This document shows, in pieces, positions 8,632 through 43,404 of a DNA stretch of 64,000 bases. The stretch lies in IMG/VR virus record IMGVR_UViG_3300020037_004820; one strand, written 5' to 3'. This DNA comes from a virus. Lineage: Duplodnaviria > Caudoviricetes. Position numbers and translations under genes: made by a program. Position 1 is the first letter of the stretch. Each line of letters opens with the position of its first letter. A model generated the notes under the pieces. The model saw nothing but the letters and a program-made list of their open reading frames with translations, was not told where the DNA came from and did no database searches.

Positions 8632-9116
8632 TGCCAAAATGGGACAGACCAACTTCCGCACCCCCTCCATTATACGTAAACAAACCTGAAAGGGATTTTC
8701 AGAAACAAATTGCGGATGAGATACAGGATTACGTTCTTCCATATGAAGGATTGTATTTTGCAGTTGATGTTGAAAGAACTAAATGGCATCCAATCTATAA
8801 AGAAGCTATAGAAAAATTTTACTATGATCCAGTTTATATAAGATTTTTTGCTGATTATGATGATAAAAATACAACAACAACAAAATATGGAAAAGATAGA
8901 AAATCAGAAGTTGTATTTCATTTTCATAAACGACGTATAAATGAAGATTTAAATCTTGTTGTAACAGAAGGTGATTTAATCTATTATAATGAGGAATATC
9001 ATGAGATAAAAAAACTTGCAGAACCGGAAGGTTTATGGGATCAAGTTCAATTTAAAAATGGTGTTACAGCTTATTGTGAAAAGAGTAGAAATGTTCCCTT
9101 GTTTGAAACTAAATAA
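8631..9116 (+). CDS. head completion/neck protein (gp14-like)
   Basis: HPIYKEAIEK, VVFHFHKRR, EGDLIYY..YHEI; position before the sheath gene. Confidence 0.78.
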   Translation: MPKWDRPTSAPPPLYVNKPERDFQKQIADEIQDYVLPYEGLYFAVDVERTKWHPIYKEAIEKFYYDPVYIRFFADYDDKNTTTTKYGKDRKSEVVFHFHKRRINEDLNLVVTEGDLIYYNEEYHEIKKLAEPEGLWDQVQFKNGVTAYCEKSRNVPLFETK

Positions 9117-9136
9117 GAGCTTTGAGGAAAAAATTC

Positions 9137-9143
9137 CTAATTA
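9137..9143 (+). promoter_or_regulatory. putative late promoter motif CTAATTA (sheath gene)
   Basis: 27 nt upstream of the sheath ATG. Confidence 0.6.
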
Positions 9144-9170
9144 TAGATGTATAAATTGGAGATAACTTAG

Positions 9171-12116
9171 ATGTCAGAAAAACAATATAAAGCAGTTAGC
9201 CCGGGAGTAGAGATTAGAGAAATTGATCAGTCTCAACTTCCTGCCGTTTTTGATGAGCAAGGTCCAGTTGTAATTGGACGTGCGGAACGTGGACCGGCAA
9301 TGGTTCCCGTTAAAGTCAATTCTTATTCAGAATTTGTTGAATTTTTCGGCAATCCTAATGGAAATCTTGCTCTAACGGACGTATGGAGAGAGAAAGTAAC
9401 TATTGGTCCTTCTTATGGAGCTTTAGCTGCGCAAGCATCTTTAGCAAATAAAAGCGCTTTAACTTTCGTTCGTTTGTTAGGAACACAAAATGATGAAGCA
9501 ACTTCTGCGGGTAGAGCAGGATGGGGAGTTGGTGGAGATGGAGATGCAGAAAACCTTTCTTATAACGTAAGAGAAGGTGGAGCATATGGTCTATATCTGA
9601 TTCCTTCTGTTACATTGCCTGCAACAGTTGCAACAGGGACACTTGCAGCAGTATTTTACCTAAATACTGGTTCTATAATGCTTAAAGGACAATTATATGG
9701 AGCATCTGGCGCATATAGTTCAATTTCTGGGTCTGCTGTATTAATTGAATCCGATACCAATAAACAATTCAGAGCCTTGATAAAGAATGCTTCTGGTGTA
9801 ACCGTTGAAGACGTTACATTTGGTATGGATAAATCTGGCGATAAATTCATCCGTAAAGTATTCAATACGAATCCTACAAAAATTAACTCTGCTTTGTATA
9901 CTTCCCCTAAGACATACTTTTTAGGAGAAACCTTCGAAGACTTTATTTATAATGCTGATGAAATGTCAGGTATGCGTGATTCTACAAGATGGGTAGGTGT
10001 TATCTTAGGATTGAAGAACAATTCTACAGGAGATACTCTGTCTAGCAGAAGAATTCCTTCTCAACACGGTAGAACAGGATGGTTCTTCTCTCAACACTTA
10101 GGAAATAACGCAAACTTTGAAATCGATAACGTTCAAAAATTATTCAAAATACACTCTCGTGATTCTGGAGAATGGAATCAAGCTCATATCAAAATTTCTA
10201 TAAGAAATGTAGAAGCAAGTACAAATGTCTACAATCCTTACGGAACCTTTGACGTTGTTATAAGAAAAATTGACGACTCTGATCAAAACATTGTAATCAT
10301 TGAACAATTCAATGGATGCGATTTGAATCCTCAATCTGAAAATTATCTAGCAAAGAAAATTGGTGACAAATATATTGTATACAGCACTTCTGATCGTAGA
10401 AATATAGAATATGGAGATTATGATAATCAATCAAGATATATCAGAGTTGAAATAAATGAAGATGTAGCAGTTGGAGCAACTGTTCCTGAATTGCTTCCAT
10501 TCGGTGTATATGGACCTGTGAAATTTAGAGATTTCTCTTTCTCATCGGGATCTATTGGAAACGATTTGGGTATGTCTGGTTCTATGTTTGGAGAATATGA
10601 AAGAGCTGCAACTGGTGCAACTTATCCGAACTATGCTGCGGCATTCGTTATAGGTGGAACTTCTATTGCAGATTCTGCTGTAAATGCATTATCTGGAACT
10701 GGTCCTGTAGTATTCGGTGCTGGACCATCTGGTGCTGTTTCAACAACAATCAAGACTGCTGCTATTCTAATGCCTTTCCCAAGACTTAGAGTTTCAACAC
10801 TTACAGGTGCATTAGGTAATCCTAAGAATGCATACTTCGGAGTATTCACAGATAATACATCTGATACTTTCCAAAAATCTGTAAGAGATTTAACAAATGT
10901 TATGCCAAGAGGTGTAGATTCTTTTGCACCTGATTCTGCGGAAGGAACAGCTTATTCATGGAAGTTCACTTTAGATGATTTGAAGTATGTATCTGGTGGA
11001 GAAACTGATGTTCAATGGTCATCTGGTTCTAGATTAGCTGGAACATCAATAACATCTATCGGTTCAAATGGATGGAACTCTGTACTGACAGGTGGTTGGG
11101 ATTCTTTCACAACATTATTAGCAGGTGGATTTGACGGATGGGATATTACTGAAATCGAACCATTGAGAAATGATGCGATGGCAGGAGCAACCGAAAAGAC
11201 AAATTATGCATATAATACAATAAACAGAGCTATAGAGCTTCTACAATATCCTGAGTTAGTAGAATTCAACGTTGCTGCAATCCCTGGTGTAAATAAAGCA
11301 GGGTTGACAAGAAGACTGATTGAAGTCTGCTCACAAAGAGGAGACGCCTTAGCGGTTATAGATTTGGAAAATGATTATAAGCCACGTTCAGAAAATTCTC
11401 TTCCAGAATCGTCTAGAAGACCTATTGTGTCAACTGCAATTAGTGCATTGAAAGATAGAGCATTCAATACGAACTATGGTTGTGCATATTTCCCATGGGT
11501 ACAAGGTATTGATCCAAACTCTAACATTCTTACATATCTTCCTCCTTCGGTTATTGCATTAGGAGCATTTGCTTATACAGATAGAGTAGCTGGTTCACAC
11601 CATGCTCCTGCTGGATTTAGTAGAGGTTCGTTGTCCCAAGGACACGGTGGAATACCTGTAAAAGATGTAACATTGAAATTATTGCAAAAAGATCGTGATG
11701 ATCTATATAAAGCAAATATCAATCCCATCTCTTTCCTTGAAAGAGAAGTGGTTATCATGGGACAAAAAACTCTACAAGTTATTCCATCTGCATTGGATCG
11801 TATAAGTGTAAGAAGAGGTCTATTAGATCTTAGAAAGAAATTCTCTAAGATTGCGTCTAGACTTATCTTTGAACCTAACGTCCAAGATACTTGGAACAGA
11901 TTCAAAAATCAAGCAGAACCTGTATTGAGAGATATGGTTACTAAATTAGGATTAGATGACTGGAGACTTATATTGGATAGTAGAACAACTACTCCTGATT
12001 TGATAGATAGAAATATCATCTATGCAAAAGTTTACTTAAAACCAACTCGCGCAGCAGAATTCTTCTATCTTGACTTTAATATAAGTAATTCAGGTGCCGC
12101 TTTTGCGGAAGTGTAA
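9171..12116 (+). CDS. tail sheath protein (gp18-like)
   Basis: SPGVEIREID, GRAERGP, AYFPWV, APAG, RD.LY...INPI, GQKTLQ, RISVRR, FEPN. Confidence 0.96.
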   Translation: MSEKQYKAVSPGVEIREIDQSQLPAVFDEQGPVVIGRAERGPAMVPVKVNSYSEFVEFFGNPNGNLALTDVWREKVTIGPSYGALAAQASLANKSALTFVRLLGTQNDEATSAGRAGWGVGGDGDAENLSYNVREGGAYGLYLIPSVTLPATVATGTLAAVFYLNTGSIMLKGQLYGASGAYSSISGSAVLIESDTNKQFRALIKNASGVTVEDVTFGMDKSGDKFIRKVFNTNPTKINSALYTSPKTYFLGETFEDFIYNADEMSGMRDSTRWVGVILGLKNNSTGDTLSSRRIPSQHGRTGWFFSQHLGNNANFEIDNVQKLFKIHSRDSGEWNQAHIKISIRNVEASTNVYNPYGTFDVVIRKIDDSDQNIVIIEQFNGCDLNPQSENYLAKKIGDKYIVYSTSDRRNIEYGDYDNQSRYIRVEINEDVAVGATVPELLPFGVYGPVKFRDFSFSSGSIGNDLGMSGSMFGEYERAATGATYPNYAAAFVIGGTSIADSAVNALSGTGPVVFGAGPSGAVSTTIKTAAILMPFPRLRVSTLTGALGNPKNAYFGVFTDNTSDTFQKSVRDLTNVMPRGVDSFAPDSAEGTAYSWKFTLDDLKYVSGGETDVQWSSGSRLAGTSITSIGSNGWNSVLTGGWDSFTTLLAGGFDGWDITEIEPLRNDAMAGATEKTNYAYNTINRAIELLQYPELVEFNVAAIPGVNKAGLTRRLIEVCSQRGDALAVIDLENDYKPRSENSLPESSRRPIVSTAISALKDRAFNTNYGCAYFPWVQGIDPNSNILTYLPPSVIALGAFAYTDRVAGSHHAPAGFSRGSLSQGHGGIPVKDVTLKLLQKDRDDLYKANINPISFLEREVVIMGQKTLQVIPSALDRISVRRGLLDLRKKFSKIASRLIFEPNVQDTWNRFKNQAEPVLRDMVTKLGLDDWRLILDSRTTTPDLIDRNIIYAKVYLKPTRAAEFFYLDFNISNSGAAFAEV

Positions 12117-12142
12117 TAGTTATGACAGGAGAAATATAAAAC

Positions 12143-12730
12143 ATGGCAGCACCTAATGTATTCTGGGCAAGTCCAGTAAATGAACCAAAAAGATCGTACA
12201 AATATCTTGTACAATGGGGTAACGGAGATATTCCTTGGTATCTCGTATCGTCTATTGATCTTCCAAAATTAGAAGTTGGGGAAGCGCAAACTCATGCTCT
12301 TAATCATACCTTCAAATGGACCGGAAGACCTACTTGGCAAGATGTTACCATGGAAGTAACAGATTCTGAGTCTCTAAATGCTATGAAAGTTGTTATGAAT
12401 AAGTTCAAACAAGCTGGGTATGTTTATCCTGATAGACCTACTCAATATAGAACTATCTCTAAACAAGGATTTATAAATGCATTTGGACAATTGGTTATTC
12501 AAGAAATAAGTTGGGATGAAAAGATCATAGGAGAATGGAAATTTCTCAATGCTTGGATTAAGAGTATTGATCCAGGTAAGAAAGCTTATGAATCTGATGA
12601 TCCTCAAAAAATATCAATTGGTGTTACGTTCGATTGGGCGGAATACGATACAGAAAATGCAGGAACCTTTATAGGGGAAAATCCATTGCAAGGAGATGTT
12701 CCTGGTGGCGGAAATCCTAACGCAGCTTAA
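12143..12730 (+). CDS. tail tube protein (gp19-like)
   Basis: EPKR.Y, GRPTWQDVT, W.FLNAWIKSID, FDWA; directly after the sheath gene. Confidence 0.9.
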   Translation: MAAPNVFWASPVNEPKRSYKYLVQWGNGDIPWYLVSSIDLPKLEVGEAQTHALNHTFKWTGRPTWQDVTMEVTDSESLNAMKVVMNKFKQAGYVYPDRPTQYRTISKQGFINAFGQLVIQEISWDEKIIGEWKFLNAWIKSIDPGKKAYESDDPQKISIGVTFDWAEYDTENAGTFIGENPLQGDVPGGGNPNAA

Positions 12731-12744
12731 TAATTGAGGTATAA

Positions 12745-13569
12745 ATGAGTTCAAATAATAAATTTCCAGAATTGGTATTTCCATCATATACAGATATGGT
12801 GGATTTACCCTCTGGAGGAAAATTTTATCCTAAAGATCATCCTCTTTACGGTCAAACTTGTGTTGAAATAAAACAAATTAGAGGGCCAGAAGAAGATATT
12901 TTAACAAATAAGGATTATCTTAGACGAGATATAGCAGTTGATAAACTACTATTATCTCTTATTAAAAATGATAATCTTAAACAAGATTATGCATATAATA
13001 ATTTGCTTATTGCGGACCAACTAATGTTGGTCAATCAAGCAAGAATGACAGCATATACATATGATTATTCATGTTCTATTCGTTGTCCAGCATGCAAAGT
13101 GGTATCTAATTTCAAATTTGATCTTAGAAAGCATAAGATTATTTTACCAGATTTATCAAATGATAAAGATGTAAAGTATGACGAAGACACTAACCAATTT
13201 GTGGTTACTATTCCTGATACTAAAATTGTGTTACGATTATTGCCATATACTGTGGGTACACAACGAAAGATAAAGAATAAGCTCTTAGCGAAAAAAGATA
13301 AAAGTCTTTCCAAAAAAGAGCGCTATGAAGATGTCATATATTCTATAAACGATGAAACGGATAGAAAATACATTTCAGAATTTTTCAACGTGGTGCCTGC
13401 TTTCTATCTAAAGTGGTTAGAAGCTGTAATAGAGGATATCAATATTACTGTTTCTTTTGAACAACAATTCGTATGTAGTTCTTGTCAATATGATGAAGAT
13501 CTGGAGCCGCCGTTTACAGTTGATTTTTTATATACACCGAAGATCCAAAGGAAGAAGCTACAAGAGTAA
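12745..13569 (+). CDS. baseplate hub assembly/tail chaperone (gp26-like)
   Basis: VDLPSGGKFYP, EEDILT, CPAC and CSSC Zn motifs, PFTVDF near the C-terminus. Confidence 0.8.
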   Translation: MSSNNKFPELVFPSYTDMVDLPSGGKFYPKDHPLYGQTCVEIKQIRGPEEDILTNKDYLRRDIAVDKLLLSLIKNDNLKQDYAYNNLLIADQLMLVNQARMTAYTYDYSCSIRCPACKVVSNFKFDLRKHKIILPDLSNDKDVKYDEDTNQFVVTIPDTKIVLRLLPYTVGTQRKIKNKLLAKKDKSLSKKERYEDVIYSINDETDRKYISEFFNVVPAFYLKWLEAVIEDINITVSFEQQFVCSSCQYDEDLEPPFTVDFLYTPKIQRKKLQE

Positions 13570-13805
13570 ATAATAATGTCTATTTAGGTGTTAATAATTT
13601 ATTCTTTTCTTTACATGATGCTGATGAGAAAAAGTTGGCATTACATACAGAAATAGCAAATATGCAAGCGCATAATTGGGATATAATGTATGCGTATTCT
13701 CTCCCTGTTGGTCTTAGAATATTCTATATAAAACAAATAGTAGAGCGATTAAATGCGGAACATGAAGCAAGAAATCAATCTGCAAGAGAAAGTGCTAAAG
13801 TCTAA
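13524..13805 (+). CDS. unannotated -1 frame extension (gp51-like tail), probably reached by frameshift
   Basis: 93 open codons from just after TGA 13521-13523 to TAA 13803-13805: ...LHTEIANMQAHNWDIMYAYSLPVGLRIFYIKQIVERLNAEHEARNQSARESAKV; begins at the slippery heptamer T TTT TTA. Confidence 0.72.
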   Translation, partial: FFIYTEDPKEEATRVNNNVYLGVNNLFFSLHDADEKKLALHTEIANMQAHNWDIMYAYSLPVGLRIFYIKQIVERLNAEHEARNQSARESAKV

Positions 13806-13833
13806 ACTGTGATATAAACTATCACAGTTTTTT
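13804..13833 (+). terminator. rho-independent terminator
   Basis: AAACTGTGATA-taaac-TATCACAGTTT plus T-run, immediately after the -1 frame stop. Confidence 0.8.
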
Positions 13834-13868
13834 CATTTAAGCATAATTAAAGCCAGGAATACTAATAA

Positions 13869-16457
13869 ATGGCAGATAATATATCAGTAGATATTGATCG
13901 TTTAGTTGATGAGCTTACTAAAAGAAGTTCTCTATCGCGTGTGCTTAATGAAGAACAAGCAGACGTCAGCAAGTATTTAACTGAATTTATTGAGGCTATA
14001 AAAGCTGCGAGCAAAGAACTAAAGACAGCTTCTGATAAATTTGATTCTGCGGGTAAAGCAGTTTCTGATCGTCAAAAAGAAGACGAAAAGATTTATGCTG
14101 AATTCAAAGAGAAATTTGAAGAGGCAATGAAGCTTGATAAAGTAGAAGAAGTTCAATCTGCTTTTGATAAATTAGTTGAATCTATTGAAGAAGCTGTTAA
14201 AGCAAAACGTTTAGAAGCAGATAATGGTGAGCTATTAAAAAATGCATTAAATGCAAAAAAAGAATTTATAGAAGCTGCGTCTAATCTACAAAAAGCTAAA
14301 ATAGAAGAAGAAAAGCATAAAAATATGCTTGAACGTATAAAATCTTCTAGTCAATCAAATGTGAGTTCTTTATTCGGAGCATTAGGCTTATCTTATGAGG
14401 GTGATCCTAAAAATGCTAACGCTTTGTTTATGGGTCTATCTCTTATAAGAGATGGTAAAACTCAACAAGGTATGTCATTATTAGCTGCATACGCAGATAT
14501 GGCACAAAAAGCATATTCTAATATGATCGATCCGTTAAACGTATTTGTCAATATTCTTGGTCTGTTGAAATCTAAAACTATAGAAGTCTTCACCATGGCG
14601 GATCAAGTAACAGCTAATTTTCTACGAGCAACAGGTGCTACAACTGCGTATAGAGATGTTGTAATGGAAGCATGGGATGGAACTAGAGGAGTAGGTGTTT
14701 CTTTAGAAGAAATGTCTGATATAGTTCAAGGGTTGATTAATGATTTTAGAGGTTTCTCTAGAGAAACCGAAGATTCTAAAATTCAAACTGCTGAATATGT
14801 TTCACTTGTATCTAGATTAGGAGTTGGATCGTCTAGCGCAATCAAATTACTCACTTATTTTACAGATTCTTTAAAACAAAGTGTTACACAAGCAAAAGGG
14901 AATTATTCCCAATTATTAGGATTAGTGAAAACAACTGGTGAAACTCTTAAGAAAGTAACAGATGATTTTATTCAATCTATTCCAGTTGTATCTAGATATG
15001 GTTCACAAGCATCGTCTGTGTTTAGACAGATGTTTGCAACAGCAAAAGCATTGCGCATTGAAACTTCTCAGCTATTAGAAGTTTCAAGTCATTTTGATAC
15101 TTTTGAAGATGCTGCAACTTCTGTTGGTAAATTAAATGCAATTATGGGAGGACCTTATCTAAATGCCATTCAGCTAATGAATCAAAACGAAGCAGAACGT
15201 ATTACAACTCTTAACAGAGCATTTAAAGCAACTGGAAAAACATGGGAATCTCTAAGCAAATATAGCAGACTTGCTTTCGCCGCTGCTGCGAATATTACAG
15301 ATATGGATGTGGCTCAAAAAGTATTTAATGGATCTACACAAGATGCTGCGCGTTATATGCGTCAAGCATCTTTGGAACAAGAAGAATTAGCGGAAAAGAA
15401 TCAACGTGCAACTAGTATTGCAGATAAATGGAAAAATGTTCTTATGCAAATTGGAGCTGTTTTAACTCCTATTATTGATCTTGTACATGGTGTTGTTGAT
15501 GTATTTTTAGATTTCTCAGATACATTAGGTAAAATTTGGGGACCATTGCGTGTATTGGCTGTTCCTTTATTGTTCATGATGATATCTGGTTTTAAAGGTC
15601 TATTTTCTATGATGTTAAGTTTTGGACCAAAAGCCATAACAAAGATAAGTTCTCTATTATCTAAATTTAGTGGAATAGCTTCTACTGTAGCGCCTGCTAC
15701 AGAAGCTGCTGCTGCTGGAATAGGTGCAGCGGGAAGTGCATCGGCTGCTGCTGCTCCTTCTGTTGGAGGATTAGGAAAAGTATTGTCAGGAATTGCACAA
15801 GAAGCGCCTGCTATAGCAAAAGCTATATTATATATAGGTGGAGCAATTGCAATTGTTGTTGCGTCATTCATGGCTTTAAAACAAATAGCTTCTGGTATTG
15901 GTTCTTTGTTTGAAGGAGTTGGTAAAGGAGTTGGAAAATTTGTTGAAGGAATAGGTCAAGGATTTTACGATTGGGTAACAGAATCTCCTCTTGAAGAGTT
16001 AGAGGATTTGATCGATACATTAGCAGATGCTGGTCCAGATATTGGAACTAAAATGATGGGAATTGGTAATGGATTGAAACAAATGGTCGAAAGTTTTAAT
16101 TCAAGTATATCACAATCTACGCTAGAAAGTTTTACAGATTTAATAGAAATTTTAGCAGATAACTCAAGTAAATTCTCTAATACAGTTGGTTTAGGAATTT
16201 TAGATTCCTATGCTAGATTAATGGAAGCATCTAGTGATTTAGCAATTACTCCTACAAAAATACAAGATATGAAACAGTTTACAGAAAACCTAGTTACCAT
16301 AAGTAAAACTAATGGAGATGGTGGATTGTCTAAAATTGCATCTTCTAATCAAAATGTGGAAGTTAAAGTATATATTGACGGAACAGAGCTAACCTCCAAA
16401 ATTGTAAAAGTTGTAAAAAGTGATTTAAATAATTCATTACAACCAAGAACAGGATAA
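13869..16457 (+). CDS. tape measure protein
   Basis: 862 aa, helical and Ala/Gly-rich with hydrophobic segments; FDTFEDAA..VGKLNAIMGG; follows the chaperone. Confidence 0.85.
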   Translation: MADNISVDIDRLVDELTKRSSLSRVLNEEQADVSKYLTEFIEAIKAASKELKTASDKFDSAGKAVSDRQKEDEKIYAEFKEKFEEAMKLDKVEEVQSAFDKLVESIEEAVKAKRLEADNGELLKNALNAKKEFIEAASNLQKAKIEEEKHKNMLERIKSSSQSNVSSLFGALGLSYEGDPKNANALFMGLSLIRDGKTQQGMSLLAAYADMAQKAYSNMIDPLNVFVNILGLLKSKTIEVFTMADQVTANFLRATGATTAYRDVVMEAWDGTRGVGVSLEEMSDIVQGLINDFRGFSRETEDSKIQTAEYVSLVSRLGVGSSSAIKLLTYFTDSLKQSVTQAKGNYSQLLGLVKTTGETLKKVTDDFIQSIPVVSRYGSQASSVFRQMFATAKALRIETSQLLEVSSHFDTFEDAATSVGKLNAIMGGPYLNAIQLMNQNEAERITTLNRAFKATGKTWESLSKYSRLAFAAAANITDMDVAQKVFNGSTQDAARYMRQASLEQEELAEKNQRATSIADKWKNVLMQIGAVLTPIIDLVHGVVDVFLDFSDTLGKIWGPLRVLAVPLLFMMISGFKGLFSMMLSFGPKAITKISSLLSKFSGIASTVAPATEAAAAGIGAAGSASAAAAPSVGGLGKVLSGIAQEAPAIAKAILYIGGAIAIVVASFMALKQIASGIGSLFEGVGKGVGKFVEGIGQGFYDWVTESPLEELEDLIDTLADAGPDIGTKMMGIGNGLKQMVESFNSSISQSTLESFTDLIEILADNSSKFSNTVGLGILDSYARLMEASSDLAITPTKIQDMKQFTENLVTISKTNGDGGLSKIASSNQNVEVKVYIDGTELTSKIVKVVKSDLNNSLQPRTG

Positions 16458-16463
16458 TATAAT

Positions 16464-17444
16464 ATGCCATTAATGAATTATGAAAAACAAATGAAAAATG
16501 CGGGACATATGTTTCGCATTGAAGCTATGCATATCAAAGATATAAATGGTAAACCTGATTATGTTGAATTTTTTCCTTATATTGAAGGATATACTGAGAA
16601 TTATGATTCTTCATGGAATGAAGAAGATGTATTTGCTAGAATGGATGGAATAGCGAATTTTGTTTCTGTTAAAAGAAGTTTTACTCTTTCTCTAAGAGTT
16701 GCGGCAGGATCAGAAGAACAAGCTCGTGAAAATCAATTTAGAATTTCAAAAATGATTAGATTTCTTTATCCAGCTATTACTCCGGGTCCAGGCGATGGTT
16801 CTTTTTATTTCAGAGGCGCACCTATTTTACGTCTAAAATTAGGAAACGTTATATCAGACACTGCAACAAATGGAGGACTTTTTGGATACGTTCAAGGAGG
16901 ATTTAGTATAACTCCTTCTCATAAAGATGGTTGGTTTGCTCCTCAAAAAGAAATAATTATACGAAATAATTCTAACATTTTTGCATCCCCTTTAAATGAA
17001 CAACGACAAGATTCTCCAGATAAAGGACAATCTGAAAAAGCTGTTACATTATTTTTTAAATATTTCGATATAAATTTTACCTTCAAAGTTTTACATAATC
17101 ATCCATTAGGTACTAATGCTGAATCGAATAATCAGGGATCATTTACATATTTTCCTTATGGTGTAAACAATCAAGATTTTTCAAATGGATCAGAATTAAA
17201 TCCGGCAGATTTAACAACAAGACATGAATGGGATGATTCAAGTATGTCAGCCGATGATAGACATCAAAGATTTTTGGATAATGATTCTAGAACACCAATT
17301 GAAGATGAAATTGGAGATGATGGTTATACAGAATATGGCAGACAAATAAAGGCTCAAAATGAAAGATATATACAGCAATATGAAGAGAATCAACGTATAA
17401 TAAATCAAAAGAAATTAGACCAACTCTTTGGAAGAAGTAAATAA
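16464..17444 (+). CDS. baseplate/tail tube initiator protein (gp48/54-like)
   Basis: YTENYDSSWN...ARMD, R.FTLS, APILRLKLGN; synteny. Confidence 0.65.
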   Translation: MPLMNYEKQMKNAGHMFRIEAMHIKDINGKPDYVEFFPYIEGYTENYDSSWNEEDVFARMDGIANFVSVKRSFTLSLRVAAGSEEQARENQFRISKMIRFLYPAITPGPGDGSFYFRGAPILRLKLGNVISDTATNGGLFGYVQGGFSITPSHKDGWFAPQKEIIIRNNSNIFASPLNEQRQDSPDKGQSEKAVTLFFKYFDINFTFKVLHNHPLGTNAESNNQGSFTYFPYGVNNQDFSNGSELNPADLTTRHEWDDSSMSADDRHQRFLDNDSRTPIEDEIGDDGYTEYGRQIKAQNERYIQQYEENQRIINQKKLDQLFGRSK

Positions 17445-17782
17445 TGACTATAAGATACTCTAAAAATAAAATATTCACTAATGATTATATAGAATACAAA
17501 CCTTTGTTTGAAGCTAGAGGGCTAAAGTATATAAGACAATATGCTACAAATACACTGTTGACTCCTACGGCCGAAGATATAAGTGAGATGAGAATAGATA
17601 AGTTCTCATGGAAGCTTGGGGATGCAATGTGGAGATATGCTGCGCAACATTACGGCAGAGCTAATTTATGGTGGGTTATCGCGCATTTTAATCAAAAACC
17701 GACTGACCACCATTTTCAATACGGCGATATAGTATATATACCCTCTCCTTTAGATAGAGTGTTCAGGAGTTATGGCTTATGA
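17444..17782 (+). CDS. LysM-like baseplate wedge protein (gp53-like)
   Basis: WKLGD...YAAQHYG...LWWVIAHFN.KP....GDIVYIP. Confidence 0.8.
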   Translation: MTIRYSKNKIFTNDYIEYKPLFEARGLKYIRQYATNTLLTPTAEDISEMRIDKFSWKLGDAMWRYAAQHYGRANLWWVIAHFNQKPTDHHFQYGDIVYIPSPLDRVFRSYGL

Positions 17783-20115
17783 TGGAGTTTGGGGAATTAG
17801 ATCAATTTCTTTTGATAAGATATCTAGAAAAAATTGTTTCTTGGCATAAAAATTTCGAAGGGACTAACAATCCGTATAACAATCTAATAATGGTTCAAGG
17901 CAACAGACCAGATGTTACTTTTAACAGAATACTAAATTGTGATAAAGATGTTTATACATTTTTCAATAATTTAAATTCTATACAAAAAGCTACAATGATG
18001 CCTAAGTTAGAATTGTATTATATGACAAAGGAAGGATATAAACTGATAAATTTTAGAAATTTTCCTGATTTTGATGAATTTAGAAATTTTGCAACTAATA
18101 CTAAAAAAGAATTTTCTTTTAAAGAAGGACAAGAGAAAGAAGATGGTGTAGGATTAAAAAAGATTACAATATCTGATAAAAATCAAAATCCCGGATCTGT
18201 TAATTTGGAATGTACTGTAGAATTATTTTTCGACAATATTTTAGCATTAACTAATAGTTCTATATTACAATTGATTCGTGTACCTGAAACACGCTCTAGT
18301 AAATCGGAGAGAGATTTTAGACTTAAGTTAGTAGCTGGTTGGCATACTCCGGTAGATGTTAGTAATGAAATATTCTCAACTAAACAACTTGAGTATATAG
18401 AAAGATCAAATGTTGTGTATCTATTGTCTCTTGTTAAACATGATTTATCTTTTAATCAGAATGGATCAATAACTTTAACAATTCATTATCAAGGAGCTTT
18501 AGAAAAATATTTAGCTTCATCATCAGAGATGGATATATTCAGTGTATCATCTGAAGCACAAATGTATAAATTTTTATTAGATATTTCAAAAGCAGATACA
18601 GCAAACATAAAATATCTGCAAGATTATATAACTCAAACTCATAATAAAATCTTGTATGAAGCACAGTTGGAAACAATTTCTAAACAAAGATTAACAGCAA
18701 CTGAAAAGGCTAGAATAGATTTAGGAGAAAATTTATCTGGAGATAGAAATCAAACATCAGAAGCATTTAAATTAAACGCAGAAGCCGAAAAAGAAATTGA
18801 AGCTAAATTATCAGAAACTCTAAAAAGAATTTCGGAATATGAATTGTATATTATAAAAACAAAATATTCTAGATTTTTAACTGCTTTAGAAAATTCTCAA
18901 AGATTATTCTTTTTGCCAATATTATCGGATACATACTCTGGTTTACATAAAGATTTATTAACAAATAATGCAAAGTTTTGGGAACCTGTTTTGGATATAA
19001 CTCCTATTAATCCTGAAAATTTTGCAAAAACAGAAAATAGAGATGCTTTGTATACATTGCAAAGAAAGAAAAATATAGCATATCAAACAATTATAGAACA
19101 GATCTATGCGGCAAATGGAGATGAATCAAAATTATCAGAAATAACTGCCAATGCTTTTACATTTGGTTTAGATCAACTTGCTCCTAGTTTTAGACAAACT
19201 CCTGGGCCTTCTAATAAATATATCGTATATACAACTTTAGGAGATATTGTCAATATTGCTAGAGGATTTGTTGAGATTCCAGAAGCTGATCATACTGAGA
19301 TACTTTTGGGGCCGTGTTTGGTAGGAAAAATATCTATTAATATTGCAAGCTTTCCTATCGCTCTTTCTACTTTTATGACTTGGTTTGTTAATTCTGTAAT
19401 ACGAAAAGCTGTTAGAAAGTATCAATTTTGGGATTTCATTTACGATATCATAGGCGCGCTAATTGCTCCTGTTTTATTGACAACAGGATTAATTCCTAAT
19501 CAAGCTGTTAACTTAAATCTATCAACAGCTATCGTCATATCTGATCAACAATTAGAAAAAGGTAAATCTTATTTAGATGAAAATATGTTTCATTTTCTTT
19601 CTAAAAATATTTTCAATACTCAACAAATTTATTCATATATGGTCTTATATATGAAAGATTATGAAATAGATAAAAGAGATGGAATACTAGAAGAAGATAT
19701 GCAAAATGGTATATATCATTTCGGCATATTTAAAGATAGAGGAATTGTTAAAAGCATAGATTTCACTAAATTAGATTTTCCTAGATTAAGAGATATGCGT
19801 TTAGTAACAGAAGGATTTAACAATGCAGGAGATTTATTGAGAGAACATTACCAAATGACTTTGAAAACTATAGGTTCTCCTTTATTTATTGTTGGTTCTC
19901 AGGTTTATTTTGATGGATCGTATTTAGGAGAGACTGGTAGAAATATAACAGAATTAATAGGTTTAGGTGGATATTATATAATCACAAATATAGAGACGAC
20001 AATTTCTAAGGAATTATATGAAACAGAAGTAAAATGTTTGTGGACAAGTATGCGTAAAACTAGTGCAGAAGGTTATAGAATTGTGGATGTTGGAAAATTA
20101 GAGGCAGAAAAATGA
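17779..20115 (+). CDS. baseplate hub/tail protein (gp27-like)
   Basis: C-terminal GIVKSIDF..TLKTIGSPLF.VG..GGYYIIT.IE..YET; synteny. Confidence 0.6.
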   Translation: MMEFGELDQFLLIRYLEKIVSWHKNFEGTNNPYNNLIMVQGNRPDVTFNRILNCDKDVYTFFNNLNSIQKATMMPKLELYYMTKEGYKLINFRNFPDFDEFRNFATNTKKEFSFKEGQEKEDGVGLKKITISDKNQNPGSVNLECTVELFFDNILALTNSSILQLIRVPETRSSKSERDFRLKLVAGWHTPVDVSNEIFSTKQLEYIERSNVVYLLSLVKHDLSFNQNGSITLTIHYQGALEKYLASSSEMDIFSVSSEAQMYKFLLDISKADTANIKYLQDYITQTHNKILYEAQLETISKQRLTATEKARIDLGENLSGDRNQTSEAFKLNAEAEKEIEAKLSETLKRISEYELYIIKTKYSRFLTALENSQRLFFLPILSDTYSGLHKDLLTNNAKFWEPVLDITPINPENFAKTENRDALYTLQRKKNIAYQTIIEQIYAANGDESKLSEITANAFTFGLDQLAPSFRQTPGPSNKYIVYTTLGDIVNIARGFVEIPEADHTEILLGPCLVGKISINIASFPIALSTFMTWFVNSVIRKAVRKYQFWDFIYDIIGALIAPVLLTTGLIPNQAVNLNLSTAIVISDQQLEKGKSYLDENMFHFLSKNIFNTQQIYSYMVLYMKDYEIDKRDGILEEDMQNGIYHFGIFKDRGIVKSIDFTKLDFPRLRDMRLVTEGFNNAGDLLREHYQMTLKTIGSPLFIVGSQVYFDGSYLGETGRNITELIGLGGYYIITNIETTISKELYETEVKCLWTSMRKTSAEGYRIVDVGKLEAEK

Positions 20116-35428: not shown

Positions 35429-35673
35429 AATATATGATAATAGATAGAGATTTTTTGGAAAGTGAAGAATTATCAAGAGAACCTATTTGGTGTGCTTATG
35501 AATTGGAAAATTGTGGCAATAAAATTGCTATAGGTATATGTGGATCTGTTCCTATTAAATATCGTAATCAAGCTTTCTCTTTTGGAGAAGTAGATGAATT
35601 ATTACATCATCCATATATTGAAGTTTCTCTAGTTAGAAAACGAGAATTATCTAAGCAAAGAAGAGAAATATAA
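35404..35673 (+). CDS. hypothetical protein
   Basis: coupled ORF. Confidence 0.45.
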   Translation: MDENSMYIEYMIIDRDFLESEELSREPIWCAYELENCGNKIAIGICGSVPIKYRNQAFSFGEVDELLHHPYIEVSLVRKRELSKQRREI

Positions 35674-36227
35674 TGAGTAAACCAGGTTATCATCTTCAAA
35701 AAATAGATAAAGGTGTATTTGGAGAATTTTCCAAAATTCAAGAAGAGCTTGATGAAGCGCAAGATGCCATATATCAAAAATGTAAAATTATGGAATTAGT
35801 TGAGCTATCTGATGTGTATGGAGCTTTAAAAGAAAAGAAGAATATGAAACAAAAACTATTCACAGTCACAGCTAATGATTGTACATGGAATTATTACAGA
35901 GGTTCGGGTCCAGGCGGACAAAAAAAGAACAAAACAAGCAATTGTGCTAGAGTTGTACATGAACCATCTGGAGCAGTTGGAAAAGGCGAACAAGGTCGCT
36001 CTCAAATAGAGAATAGACAGATTGCGTGGAAACAAATGGCGAATAGTCCAGAATTTCAAAATTGGTGTCGCAATAAATCATATGAGATTTCAGGTGATGC
36101 AGAAATTATTAAAAAGAATGTAGAATTTGAACTTGTTTCAAATACATTAGTTGAAATAGAATCCGAAGATGGATGGATTCCTGGGCAACAAATAACAGAA
36201 CAAGATGTAAAAAATTCGAGGGAATAA
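35673..36227 (+). CDS. fusion of a MazG-like N-terminus with a GGQ peptidyl-tRNA hydrolase (RF-1) domain
   Basis: KI.EE..E...ELSD in the N-part; RGSGPGGQKKNKT..C.R..H.PSG and RSQ.ENR from ATG 35844. Confidence 0.82.
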   Translation: MSKPGYHLQKIDKGVFGEFSKIQEELDEAQDAIYQKCKIMELVELSDVYGALKEKKNMKQKLFTVTANDCTWNYYRGSGPGGQKKNKTSNCARVVHEPSGAVGKGEQGRSQIENRQIAWKQMANSPEFQNWCRNKSYEISGDAEIIKKNVEFELVSNTLVEIESEDGWIPGQQITEQDVKNSRE

Positions 36228-41015: not shown

Positions 41016-41570
41016 ATGCCTCTAAGATACGGAGTAAGTTTCCCAGCGTGGTTTCATCCAATTCATCCACCAACTCCGCCAATTCCACCACGCGTTCCAA
41101 AACAACAATTCTTTGAAACTAAAGAAGTATTAGTTCAGAGATTGTTTGTTGGTGGATTATCTATTCCAAAAGTTTTGGAAATGTTATCACATTATAATTC
41201 AGAAGAATATTTCATAAACAGCGTCGATACATATGATGCAAACTTTATGGAATTAATGAAAGAAGAAAAATATGAAGTTATAATAGATGAAAAAGAATTT
41301 CTAAAATTGCAAAAAGAATATGCAAGATCTATTAAAGACTATGAACGTTTTGAATCTGAGTATCAGGTTAGGGTAAAAAAATACCCTGGAATGGTTCTTA
41401 TGCATGAAGATGCAAAGTTAAGAGAAATATTAACCAAAGCAGAAGATGAATTGGAAGATGCTCAAATAAAAGAATCACAATCTCAGCAAATTTTGTGGGA
41501 ACTTAATAAGACTATAAAAGAAACAAAAGAAAAACTAACAGAGTTGCATAAACAAATTAAAGATGAATGA
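41016..41570 (+). CDS. hypothetical coiled-coil protein
   Basis: Pro-rich N-terminus, heptad-like C-terminus. Confidence 0.55.
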   Translation: MPLRYGVSFPAWFHPIHPPTPPIPPRVPKQQFFETKEVLVQRLFVGGLSIPKVLEMLSHYNSEEYFINSVDTYDANFMELMKEEKYEVIIDEKEFLKLQKEYARSIKDYERFESEYQVRVKKYPGMVLMHEDAKLREILTKAEDELEDAQIKESQSQQILWELNKTIKETKEKLTELHKQIKDE

Positions 41571-42553
41571 AAATAAAGATTCCTAAAATAGTCATAGGTA
41601 ATAATTTAACTGGAATGCAAGTTGCTATTCAACAAGATGCAACTTTCATTCCAGTTTCTTATTTAAACGCTTTTGGATGGGAACATACTACGTATGATCA
41701 TCATATTACTCAATTTATTCGATCTAAAAGAGTTGAAAAAGATTCCACAATAAATCATAAATATAAAATAAGCTCAAAACATGGAACAGAATTTATCCCA
41801 TGTTTCTATTGGGAGCTAGAGGCATTATACAAATATATTCTGCTAATGTCTAATAGACTATACGACTCCCACAGGGTCACTAATGTCAAGCATTATTCTG
41901 ATAATGTTCTGACATTAGTCTCGGCATTTGGCAATAGCTTCGAGATTGAGTTCGATACTTGCCATGTAATAAACCCTGATTATAACTGGTACGACTCTAT
42001 ATCAGAGCCTTTTGAATCACATGAGAGCGATTCATGTCATTTAATTTATTATTTGATTTTATCGAAAGATACAGAAGATATGAAGGGTATTCAATATCAA
42101 TATGATATTGAAGAATTAGAGGAAGAATATTTTACCAAAATATGGTATTCTTCTCTTTTTGGTTCAAAAAAATTTTTGGTTGGAAATGATCCTAGAAGAA
42201 AAAAACAAACAACAACAACGCGCAATATTTGTCTTTTTATAGAAAATGTTGATTTATCAGAGATTAATGATGAGAAATATTCTGTTGCTGAAATTAGAAA
42301 AGAAATTTACAAATTATTGGGATCTAGACATAAAAGAATTGCGGATAGAATATTAAGTTTCGATAAATCTATTCAAAAGATTGAATTATCATCTAGAGTA
42401 AATGTATATGAAGATACAGATAATGTGAAATACCTGTATTATACGGATAAAGAGGAAATCTTATGCCCAAAAAATTTAGACTCATCGGAATGGCCGCAAT
42501 CATACCCACGTATACTAATATCTCAATTCAAGGAGACTATGATTTTGCCATAA
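41567..42553 (+). CDS. hypothetical protein (possible degenerate Rossmann fold)
   Basis: KIVIGNNLTG N-terminal loop only. Confidence 0.5.
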   Translation: MKIKIPKIVIGNNLTGMQVAIQQDATFIPVSYLNAFGWEHTTYDHHITQFIRSKRVEKDSTINHKYKISSKHGTEFIPCFYWELEALYKYILLMSNRLYDSHRVTNVKHYSDNVLTLVSAFGNSFEIEFDTCHVINPDYNWYDSISEPFESHESDSCHLIYYLILSKDTEDMKGIQYQYDIEELEEEYFTKIWYSSLFGSKKFLVGNDPRRKKQTTTTRNICLFIENVDLSEINDEKYSVAEIRKEIYKLLGSRHKRIADRILSFDKSIQKIELSSRVNVYEDTDNVKYLYYTDKEEILCPKNLDSSEWPQSYPRILISQFKETMILP

Positions 42554-43404
42554 CTTCTCCAATATATAAAAATGCTACATTGCTTGATTTATTAATTCTA
42601 CATTGTAAGCAGTTAAATGCAAATTCTATTGTTTTAGTATGTAGACCAGAACAGATAGTTTATCTAAAATCAAGATATGGCGATGTTCTTTATTGGAACA
42701 GAAATGCAGAGATATATAAAACAATAACAATGTTTTATATATCTGTATCAACAAGATATTTCGGCAAATATGATTCTATTACGTTTAATCAGATCTATGG
42801 AGCACATATATTCAATAATGCAACCTTAGATTCTTTTGGAAGAGATTACGCTAATTCTTTTATACTAATTGATCCAAGATTGTTATTTGATCCTTTAACA
42901 AAAATGCAAATTTTTGAACATATTAGATCGTATTTTTATGGTTCAAAAGGAGACATGTTATTTTCAAAACAAGAAGAACGTGTTCCACATTATGCGTATT
43001 CCATATTAACAGTTGAAACGATAAAACAATTGTGGAACATATTGTCGACAACTGTGAAAAATAAACCATCTATTATAGAATTTGCCAAATTAGATTTAAA
43101 ACATTTTTATGATCAAATAAAACAACCAGAAAGAATATTTGAATTATTATTTCCAATCCATCATTTAGGACAGTGGCAAGAATACGTGGAACTTCTAAGT
43201 TCCATTCAGAATGCTTCTGAAGATGAAAGGGAACTTTTATACATGAGATGTATGTTTAATAAAACTGTTTTATCCTTTAGAAGATTTTCTTTAAACAATA
43301 TAGTAGATACTCCTTTTTCTCAAAAAATTGTGGAATTTAATAATTCCACAAAAGCATGGTCTAAAAGACGTTTAGAAATTAGGAAAAACAATGACAGAAA
43401 ATAA
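42463..43404 (+). CDS. hypothetical protein (possible degenerate nucleotidyltransferase-like fold)
   Basis: AAIIP..., SPI, IVLVC pattern; weak. Confidence 0.45.
   Translation: MPKKFRLIGMAAIIPTYTNISIQGDYDFAITSPIYKNATLLDLLILHCKQLNANSIVLVCRPEQIVYLKSRYGDVLYWNRNAEIYKTITMFYISVSTRYFGKYDSITFNQIYGAHIFNNATLDSFGRDYANSFILIDPRLLFDPLTKMQIFEHIRSYFYGSKGDMLFSKQEERVPHYAYSILTVETIKQLWNILSTTVKNKPSIIEFAKLDLKHFYDQIKQPERIFELLFPIHHLGQWQEYVELLSSIQNASEDERELLYMRCMFNKTVLSFRRFSLNNIVDTPFSQKIVEFNNSTKAWSKRRLEIRKNNDRK

Follow-up and report, generated by a model that had tools for sequence, protein, structure and literature searches.

The stretch of DNA analysed here (hereafter the window, 64,000 nucleotides in length) belongs to IMG/VR record IMGVR_UViG_3300020037_004820, a 75.5-kb fragment, about 40% complete, from an uncultured marine T4-related phage. 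We propose, with a probability of about 0.8, that the gene at positions 12745-13569 of the window encodes a hub/tail chaperone of the type of T4 gp26 and gp51 and gives rise to two proteins, one of 274 amino acids (aa) and one of 353 aa, the latter being made by a -1 slip on the heptamer U UUU UUA. The comparison of related sequences on which this proposal is built suggests that the T4-type chaperone family follows the two-product scheme of the lambda tail chaperones gpG/gpGT, the long form being produced by a -1 or by a +1 shift at one junction.

The zero-frame open reading frame (ORF) at 12745-13569 reads GAT TTT TTA at 13522-13530, which places an in-register X XXY YYZ heptamer, T TTT TTA, at 13524-13530. 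From there the -1 frame runs without a stop through 93 codons (13524-13802), as far as a TAA at 13803-13805, and a shift further upstream is impossible because a TGA at 13521-13523 closes that frame. The predicted fusion comprises 262 + 91 = 353 aa. The earliest canonical start codon of the -1 frame is a TTG at 13635 and its earliest ATG lies at 13662; a Shine-Dalgarno sequence of the GGAG type was looked for upstream of both, and neither has one. A preliminary description of this DNA, which had joined a gp26-like and a gp51-like frame by a -1 frameshift, gave the heptamer, its GAT TTT TTA context, the preceding TGA and the 93 open codons up to 13805 at coordinates that we confirmed, and its 274-aa short product stands. 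Its fusion of ~354 aa is to be corrected to 353 aa and, although 13662 is the first ATG and lacks a ribosome-binding site of the GGAG type, the earlier TTG went unmentioned.

By itself, the heptamer is no more than chance would provide, and it is weak evidence. The window has a G+C content of 33% and contains 110 in-register slippery heptamers in the 18,564 codons of its long ORFs, and an in-register heptamer is expected by chance in approximately 1/12 of overlaps of comparable length. Since such heptamers are this common in AT-rich DNA, the one at 13524 is not significant alone, and the case must therefore rest on the comparison with relatives.

A protein search retrieved ten clusters (51-100% identity, 267-275 aa), all of which share the C-terminus …(D/S)FL(Y/F/L)…, with F-L at the site, and keep the zero-frame stop. 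For the comparison of DNA, the window was set beside three relatives from scans of JGI and IMG/VR, namely L013 (74%), L020 (71%) and L021 (52% protein identity); a scan of genome contigs for relatives found none. The preliminary description had proposed homologues as the test for a conserved heptamer. T TTT TTA is in fact present at the identical codon in each of the three relatives with DNA, the most distant of which has 52% identity, and the -1 frame that follows is open for at least 78 codons in L013, 85 in L020 and 90 in L021. Window and L013 share 38 of 40 nucleotides around the slip site, versus 73% across the gene body, and their alignment is gap-free from the slip site onward. These sequences also bear on the idea that the T6 run is a homopolymer error of sequencing or assembly, the true gene being a single ORF of ~353 aa with T7. 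Homopolymer runs are error-prone and one protein fragment, P0128, reads straight through the equivalent site of a relative in which the shift is +1 (see below). Nevertheless, we regard an error as highly improbable: T6 followed by A occurs in four independent assemblies, the identical window protein is found on 5 contigs, the zero-frame C-terminus and stop are common to ten protein clusters from different sources, and the zero-frame tail beyond the site is itself conserved.

Codon 35 of the -1 frame, the TTG at 13635 in the window, is ATG in L013, ATA in L020 and CTT in L021; in the window no canonical start precedes it, and in L021 the frame contains no ATG, GTG or TTG for 50 codons. Judged from these four sequences, no start codon of the -1 frame is conserved. 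In the 22 codons from the zero-frame stop to codon 35, nonsynonymous difference (pN, 0.17-0.40) is lower than synonymous difference (pS, 0.56-0.91) in six of six pairs, a pattern like that of the domain downstream of codon 35; where the two frames overlap and both code, the closer pairs show a lowered pS. This argues that purifying selection acts in the -1 frame on the 22-codon stretch, all of which precedes the first start that the window could use. Since it shows pN below pS and the window has no canonical start upstream of it, the stretch is presumably translated, and the heptamer is, on this comparison, the only conserved route into it. An independent start in homologues, which the preliminary description had named as an alternative, is thus not conserved, and what lies upstream of any canonical start evolves as protein.

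That alternative holds that there is no recoding, the second frame being a separate small gene that starts at TTG 13635 or ATG 13662 and the open frame upstream being accidental. The TTG of the window and the ATG of L013 at the same codon speak for it. Against it stand ATA and CTT at that codon in L020 and L021, the L021 frame without a canonical start for 50 codons, the purifying selection on the 22 upstream codons in all six pairs, the restriction of indels in these codons to multiples of three, and the missing Shine-Dalgarno sequences before 13635 and 13662. The wider family, to which we turn now, contributes further points on both sides, and with all of them counted we consider a separate gene decidedly unlikely.

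More distant relatives of the gene (24-39% identity) were found in IMG/VR contigs, in Flavobacterium phage immuto, in Microcystis phage Mel-JY01 and in two huge-phage assemblies; they keep the order tube gene, PF12322 gene, small ORF and tape measure gene. The number of IMG/VR loci encoding relatives is ~600 or more. In the distant relatives there is a homologous extension with the motif Y-x-(L/M)-P-x-x-L-R-x-(F/Y)-(Y/F)-x-K, and we used a hidden Markov model (HMM) of this extension for a survey of its frame at 98 loci. The domain was found in the +1 frame at 90 loci, in the -1 frame at 4 (the window, L013, L020 and L021) and in the zero frame at none; it is thus out of frame at the conserved junction in 94 of the 94 loci in which it was detected, the other four being three Firmicute phages without an HMM match and one gene cut by a contig end. 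At the 90 +1 loci, the domain begins exactly after GAC TTT TTT T|GG CCN or its variants TTT CTT TGG and TTC TTT TGG. All of these keep YUU_UGG, a site at which the codons would let the P-site tRNA move one base forward and pair again with UUU. The -1 shift that the preliminary description had put forward for this gene is the one predicted in the window clade, while most of the wider family would shift by +1; in this survey the window clade is an unusual -1 minority in a mostly +1 family. Three features set the window apart: the U UUU UUA site, a linker of ~20 residues that is peculiar to its clade, and this minority status.

The extension profile matched 896 protein clusters (E <= 0.001) among 1.8 billion representatives. 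In the best 150 of the 896, the domain is mostly called as a free-standing ORF of 47-130 aa with inconsistent starts, as gene callers routinely do, and many +1 relatives have an ATG at position 7 of the domain after GAGGAG, both of which are in keeping with a separate small gene. However, the same 150 clusters include two natural in-frame fusions, P0203 (308 aa) and P0212 (313 aa), in which PF12322 is followed by the extension domain; these show that the domain works joined to the chaperone body. The beginning of the domain exactly at the shift site in 90 loci also argues against a free-standing gene. The fragment P0128 mentioned above is 118 aa long, and its reading through the T-run of a +1-type relative is either a true variant or a homopolymer error.

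Several smaller observations concern the junction. Between the shift site and the conserved domain, the window clade has ~20 extra residues (IYTEDPKEEATRVNNNVY…, encoded at 13530-13600), for which two MAFFT runs gave different alignments, and the N-L-F-F motif that follows this linker resembles the D-F-F junction of the +1 relatives. Linker and motif may be a relic of a change from +1 to -1. In Bacillus phages HSE3 and SP-15 and in a Streptococcus phage there is a +1 extension whose homology was judged by eye, the extension HMM giving no match; the junctions read TTC TTT CGT (HSE3, L029 3600-3660; Streptococcus phage GXN1, L031 3670-3729) or TTT TTT CAC. A GGAG lies at 13503-13506, 17 nucleotides upstream of the shift site, in the window and in L013, and a GGAGG (within ATG GAG GTG CC) lies ~17-21 nucleotides upstream of it in most +1 relatives (L033-L112). 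These are candidates for an internal Shine-Dalgarno-like sequence, but the same bases encode a conserved E-(V/P)-P, and nothing is concluded from them.

The run of T residues also invites another mechanism, in which the RNA polymerase adds one U while transcribing T6 and some of the mRNAs therefore encode the fused 353-aa protein. The site is indeed a homopolymer run, T6 in the window and T7 in most +1 relatives, and since the product would be nearly identical, the two mechanisms cannot be told apart by comparing sequences. Bacterial slippage sites, however, usually need runs of about 7-9 or more, which counts against slippage on T6; what is conserved is an in-register heptamer followed by A rather than a run length; and there are +1 relatives with interrupted runs (TTT CTT TGG, TTC TTT TGG, TTT CGT and TTT CTA), which still fit tRNA re-pairing and do not fit polymerase slippage. 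We therefore hold transcriptional slippage to be unlikely, and tandem -1 ribosomal slippage on U UUU UUA to be the most likely mechanism.

The assignment of the gene to the gp26/gp51 family comes from profile comparisons. The window protein matches PF12322 (T4_baseplate) with an E value of 9.4e-5 and 22.6 bits (curated cut-off 24.5), and its relatives P0004 (79% identity) and P0012 reach 30.8 and 65 bits, both above the cut-off; a precomputed PF12322 match is present in seven of nine clusters of the close clade. The window protein also matches phrog_150, and relatives match both PF12322 and phrog_150 more strongly. Alignment of the family with gp51 by hhalign gave a probability of 90-91%, and the fold matches in BFVD are baseplate hub subunit and hub assembly proteins. 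Judged by these matches, the gene at 12745-13569 belongs to the T4 gp26/gp51 family PF12322, as the preliminary description had held for the first frame. Four cysteine residues (C114, C117, C244 and C247, CxxC ... CxxC) are invariant in the close clade, T4 gp26 and gp51 have cysteine pairs at matching places, and zinc-ribbon structures align to residues 105-262 of the window model; in the model, C114, C117, C244 and C247 form a zinc ribbon.

Leiman et al. (2010, PMC3004832) count both gp26 and gp51 among the chaperones of hub assembly. The PF12322 model is covered in full by T4 gp26 (208 aa) as well as by gp51 (249 aa), which has ~48 extra C-terminal residues, and the matches of gp26 and gp51 to phrog_150 end at positions 235 and 280, respectively, those of the zero-frame family proteins at ~233. 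From these end positions and the extra tail of gp51 it follows that, by position, the short form is the equivalent of gp26 and the long form that of gp51. A gp51-type tail had been recognized in the -1 frame by the preliminary description, a claim that stands for position and for the constant register of the hhalign alignment (gp51 206-245) but is marginal in sequence, since the tail alone gives P 0.04-0.4. The fused-family alignment is colinear up to gp51 residue 245 with a probability of 91%, which comes mostly from the body, the score rising only from 51.1 to 52.9. In the precomputed annotations of gp51 homologues, the C-terminal tail of gp51 is PF28602, and P0021 has no precomputed PF28602. 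Searches of the record with phrog_634 and phrog_150 gave no matches, a result that a control shows to be uninformative, and no informative family emerged when the extension peptides were scanned against PHROG and Pfam. Neither frame matches a described tail-assembly-chaperone family (Pfam Phage_TAC, PHROG) at E <= 0.01: on these searches the chaperone gene would work like G/GT, yet is not a sequence member of the described chaperone families.

The AlphaFold2 (AF2) model of the 274-aa window protein has a predicted local distance difference test score (pLDDT) of 90.3 and a predicted template modelling score (pTM) of 0.85. Among 48,161 PDB representative chains, only three matched with Z >= 5, all on window residues 1-113: 3fgx (Z 6.4; root-mean-square deviation 3.7, 86 aligned residues), YqbN 3klu (Z 5.8; 6.0, 96 aligned) and the HK97 tail assembly chaperone 2ob9 (Z 5.5; 4.4, 89 aligned). 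The next were 5ir0 (Z 4.5) and then unrelated zinc ribbons (Z <= 3.9). YqbN and 3fgx we take to be XkdN-like tail assembly chaperones of contractile-tail prophages, their entry titles being silent. For the fold and profile analyses, the natural fusions served as a proxy for the 353-aa -1 fusion; the model of P0212 (pLDDT 82.9) gave the same three matches, two of them on its second half, and its extension region consists of three helices. A Foldseek comparison with the PDB gave no matches at E <= 0.001, and a profile search of PDB sequences returned a single chance zinc-finger match. In the model, the fold of the N-terminal ~105 aa is nearest to tail assembly chaperones, a likeness that is suggestive only because the Z values are modest (below 8).

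Several results weigh against the two-product proposal. The Z values lie in a range in which, according to the warning of the tool, common arrangements can match; the PF12322 score of the window protein itself is slightly below the curated cut-off; and the extension resembles the gp51 tail only marginally (P 0.04 when the two tails are compared alone). Downstream of the heptamer, a search for a stimulatory RNA structure gave none (z-score 0.10), and no conserved RNA pairing was found there in the four sequences of window and relatives. In E. coli, ribosomes shift less readily on U_UUU_UUA than on A_AAA_AAG (PMC5009743), although E. coli may not be the host. Codon 35, as TTG in the window and ATG in L013, would allow some internal initiation in these two.

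We envisage the expression of the gene as follows. The majority of ribosomes would read to the TAA at 13569 and make the 274-aa protein, and a minority would slip back one base on U UUU UUA (13524-13530) and read the -1 frame to the TAA at 13805, making the 353-aa protein, whose first 262 residues would be common to the 274-aa form and whose last 91 would form a mostly helical tail. Both forms would carry the chaperone body, that is, the N-terminal tail-assembly-chaperone-like domain and the four-cysteine zinc ribbon, and only the long form the tail. By analogy with lambda gpG/gpGT, the body may hold the tape measure and the tail may recruit a second partner, tube or hub, and the slip frequency would set a fixed ratio of the two forms. 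What the sequences show is the anatomy of the site, its conservation, the lack of an independent start and the purifying selection in the -1 frame; the ribosomal nature of the slip, its frequency and the binding partners are what we infer. A junction peptide TVDFLIYTEDPK would point to tandem tRNA slippage, and TVDFFIYTEDPK to a P-site slip or to transcript slippage.

The gene lies in a myovirus tail module of sheath gene, tube gene, 274-codon ORF and 862-codon tape-measure-like ORF (Table 1), which agrees with the location between tail tube and tape measure genes given in the preliminary description. The order sheath, tube, PF12322 gene and tape-measure-like gene is common to the window and to Flavobacterium, Microcystis and Bacillus phages, and in Flavobacterium phage immuto and Bacillus phage HSE3 the gene that occupies the tape-measure-like position carries a tape measure annotation; Pfam and PHROG scans of the tape-measure-like protein of the window (13869-16457) gave no matches. 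A megablast search of 9000-20000 against phage records gave no matches. The 75.5-kb record contains one copy of PF12322; a second paralogue may lie elsewhere in the genome, beyond this fragment.

Table 1. Features of the tail module around the proposed shift site (positions in the window).
Feature	Position	Strand	Remarks
Tail sheath gene	9171..12116	+	981 aa; phrog_23 tail sheath, E 2e-54; PF17482
Tail tube gene	12143..12730	+	195 aa; phrog_4542 tail tube, E 1e-18
gp26/gp51-family (PF12322) chaperone gene	12745..13569	+	zero-frame product 274 aa (predicted short form)
TGA closing the -1 frame directly upstream of the heptamer	13521..13523	+	same layout in L013 and L021
Candidate slippery heptamer T TTT TTA, zero-frame register	13524..13530	+	codons F261 and L262
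Predicted -1 frame extension	13530..13805	+	91 codons + TAA; helical domain with Y-x-L-P-x-x-L-R motif
Terminator-like hairpin and T-run	13804..13830	+	pattern match only
Putative tape measure gene	13869..16457	+	862 aa; assigned from position and size

The terminator that the preliminary description had noted after the -1 frame fits the pattern of hairpin plus T-run at 13804-13830, an 11-pair stem with 3 G-C pairs followed by TTTCATTT. It lies between the chaperone and tape-measure-like genes, directly downstream of the extension stop and 39 nucleotides upstream of the tape-measure-like ATG, and transcription of the tape measure gene may perhaps be reduced relative to sheath, tube and chaperone genes. 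In Bacillus phage SP-15, a terminator is annotated one gene earlier, downstream of the tube gene.

Besides 13524, two in-register heptamers of the window (42466 and 36209) have a -1 frame that extends past the stop. The one at 42466 was rejected as a recoding site, the downstream gene having its own AAGAGG Shine-Dalgarno sequence and ATG. This ORF (42463-43404), with a slippery-looking CCCAAAAAATTTA at its start, overlaps the 3' end of ORF 41567-42553 by 91 nucleotides in the -1 frame; the region 42463-42553 is a long overlap of the ordinary kind, useful as a negative control when heptamers are searched for. At 36209, in ORF 35673-36227, an in-register AAAAAAT stands four codons upstream of the stop and the -1 frame continues for 127 codons, probably as the next gene with its own start.

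In the annotated phage records examined, no frameshift is annotated at this gene and the second frame appears as small hypothetical proteins. A full-text literature search, whose coverage excludes subscription journals, found no report of frameshifting in the gp26/gp51 family. A review (PMC5009743) describes G-T frameshifting as a conserved feature of long-tailed phages "except T4" and includes U_UUU_UUA among the known shift sites. We lean slightly towards the view that PF12322 is the counterpart of G/GT in the T4 lineage, derived from a single frameshifted gene beside that of the tape measure, which gave a short and a long form; the slip direction would have switched, some lineages would have fused the frames, and in T4 the pair would have become the two paralogous genes 26 and 51. 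Lineages would then shift by +1 at YUU_UGG in most cases and by -1 at U_UUU_UUA in the window clade, the junction codon being unchanged. If this is true, T4 would no longer be the stated exception, and gp26 and gp51 are predicted to act on gp29 as G/GT act on gpH. This would give a concrete and testable role to T4 gp26 and gp51, whose part in the assembly of the hub has been obscure for decades. It would also put right the annotation of the second frame, which at present is split into small hypothetical ORFs whose starts are arbitrary, and the homologous -1, +1 and fused sites would offer a natural series for studying the evolution of shift direction and efficiency.

Compared with other recoding systems, the window site has the heptamer and slip direction of HIV-1 gag-pol, U UUU UUA and -1 (PMC5009743). 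In HIV-1, however, the ribosome is eukaryotic and a stem-loop downstream of the site acts as stimulator, whereas no conserved structure was found in the window. Known +1 sites include UUU_Ynn (E. coli argI, Yersinia YopN-TyeA), CUU_UGA (prfB) and UCC_UUU_CGU (influenza PA-X) (PMC5009743). Like them, YUU_UGG of the distant relatives (T7-GG, TTT CTT TGG and TTC TTT TGG) permits tRNA re-pairing one base forward, and so do TTC TTT CGT and TTT TTT CAC of the Firmicute phages, of which the former nearly equals the PA-X site; the window has no such site, its extension being in the -1 frame.

The closest parallel in organization is lambda gpG/gpGT (Levin 1993; Xu, Hendrix and Duda 2004; reviewed in PMC5009743), which is likewise encoded between the tube (major tail) and tape measure genes and likewise has no downstream stimulator, none having been found for the window heptamer, and the nearest solved folds of the window N-terminal domain, at modest Z values, are HK97 2ob9, YqbN 3klu and 3fgx. 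The window protein differs in being about twice as large and in carrying a four-cysteine zinc ribbon, its heptamer is U UUU UUA where lambda has G GGA AAG, and most relatives of the window gene shift by +1 and not by -1. T4 itself has no frameshift here: gp26 and gp51 are two separate, divergently transcribed genes, whereas the window has one gene, adjoining that of the tape measure, from which both forms are predicted, and the similarity of its extension to the gp51 tail is marginal. Nevertheless, T4 too has a short and a long form of the PF12322 family, the long one with an added C-terminal tail of ~48 aa that begins where the window zero-frame protein ends (phrog_150 ~233-235), and the hub, which contains the tape measure gp29, needs both gp26 and gp51 for its assembly.

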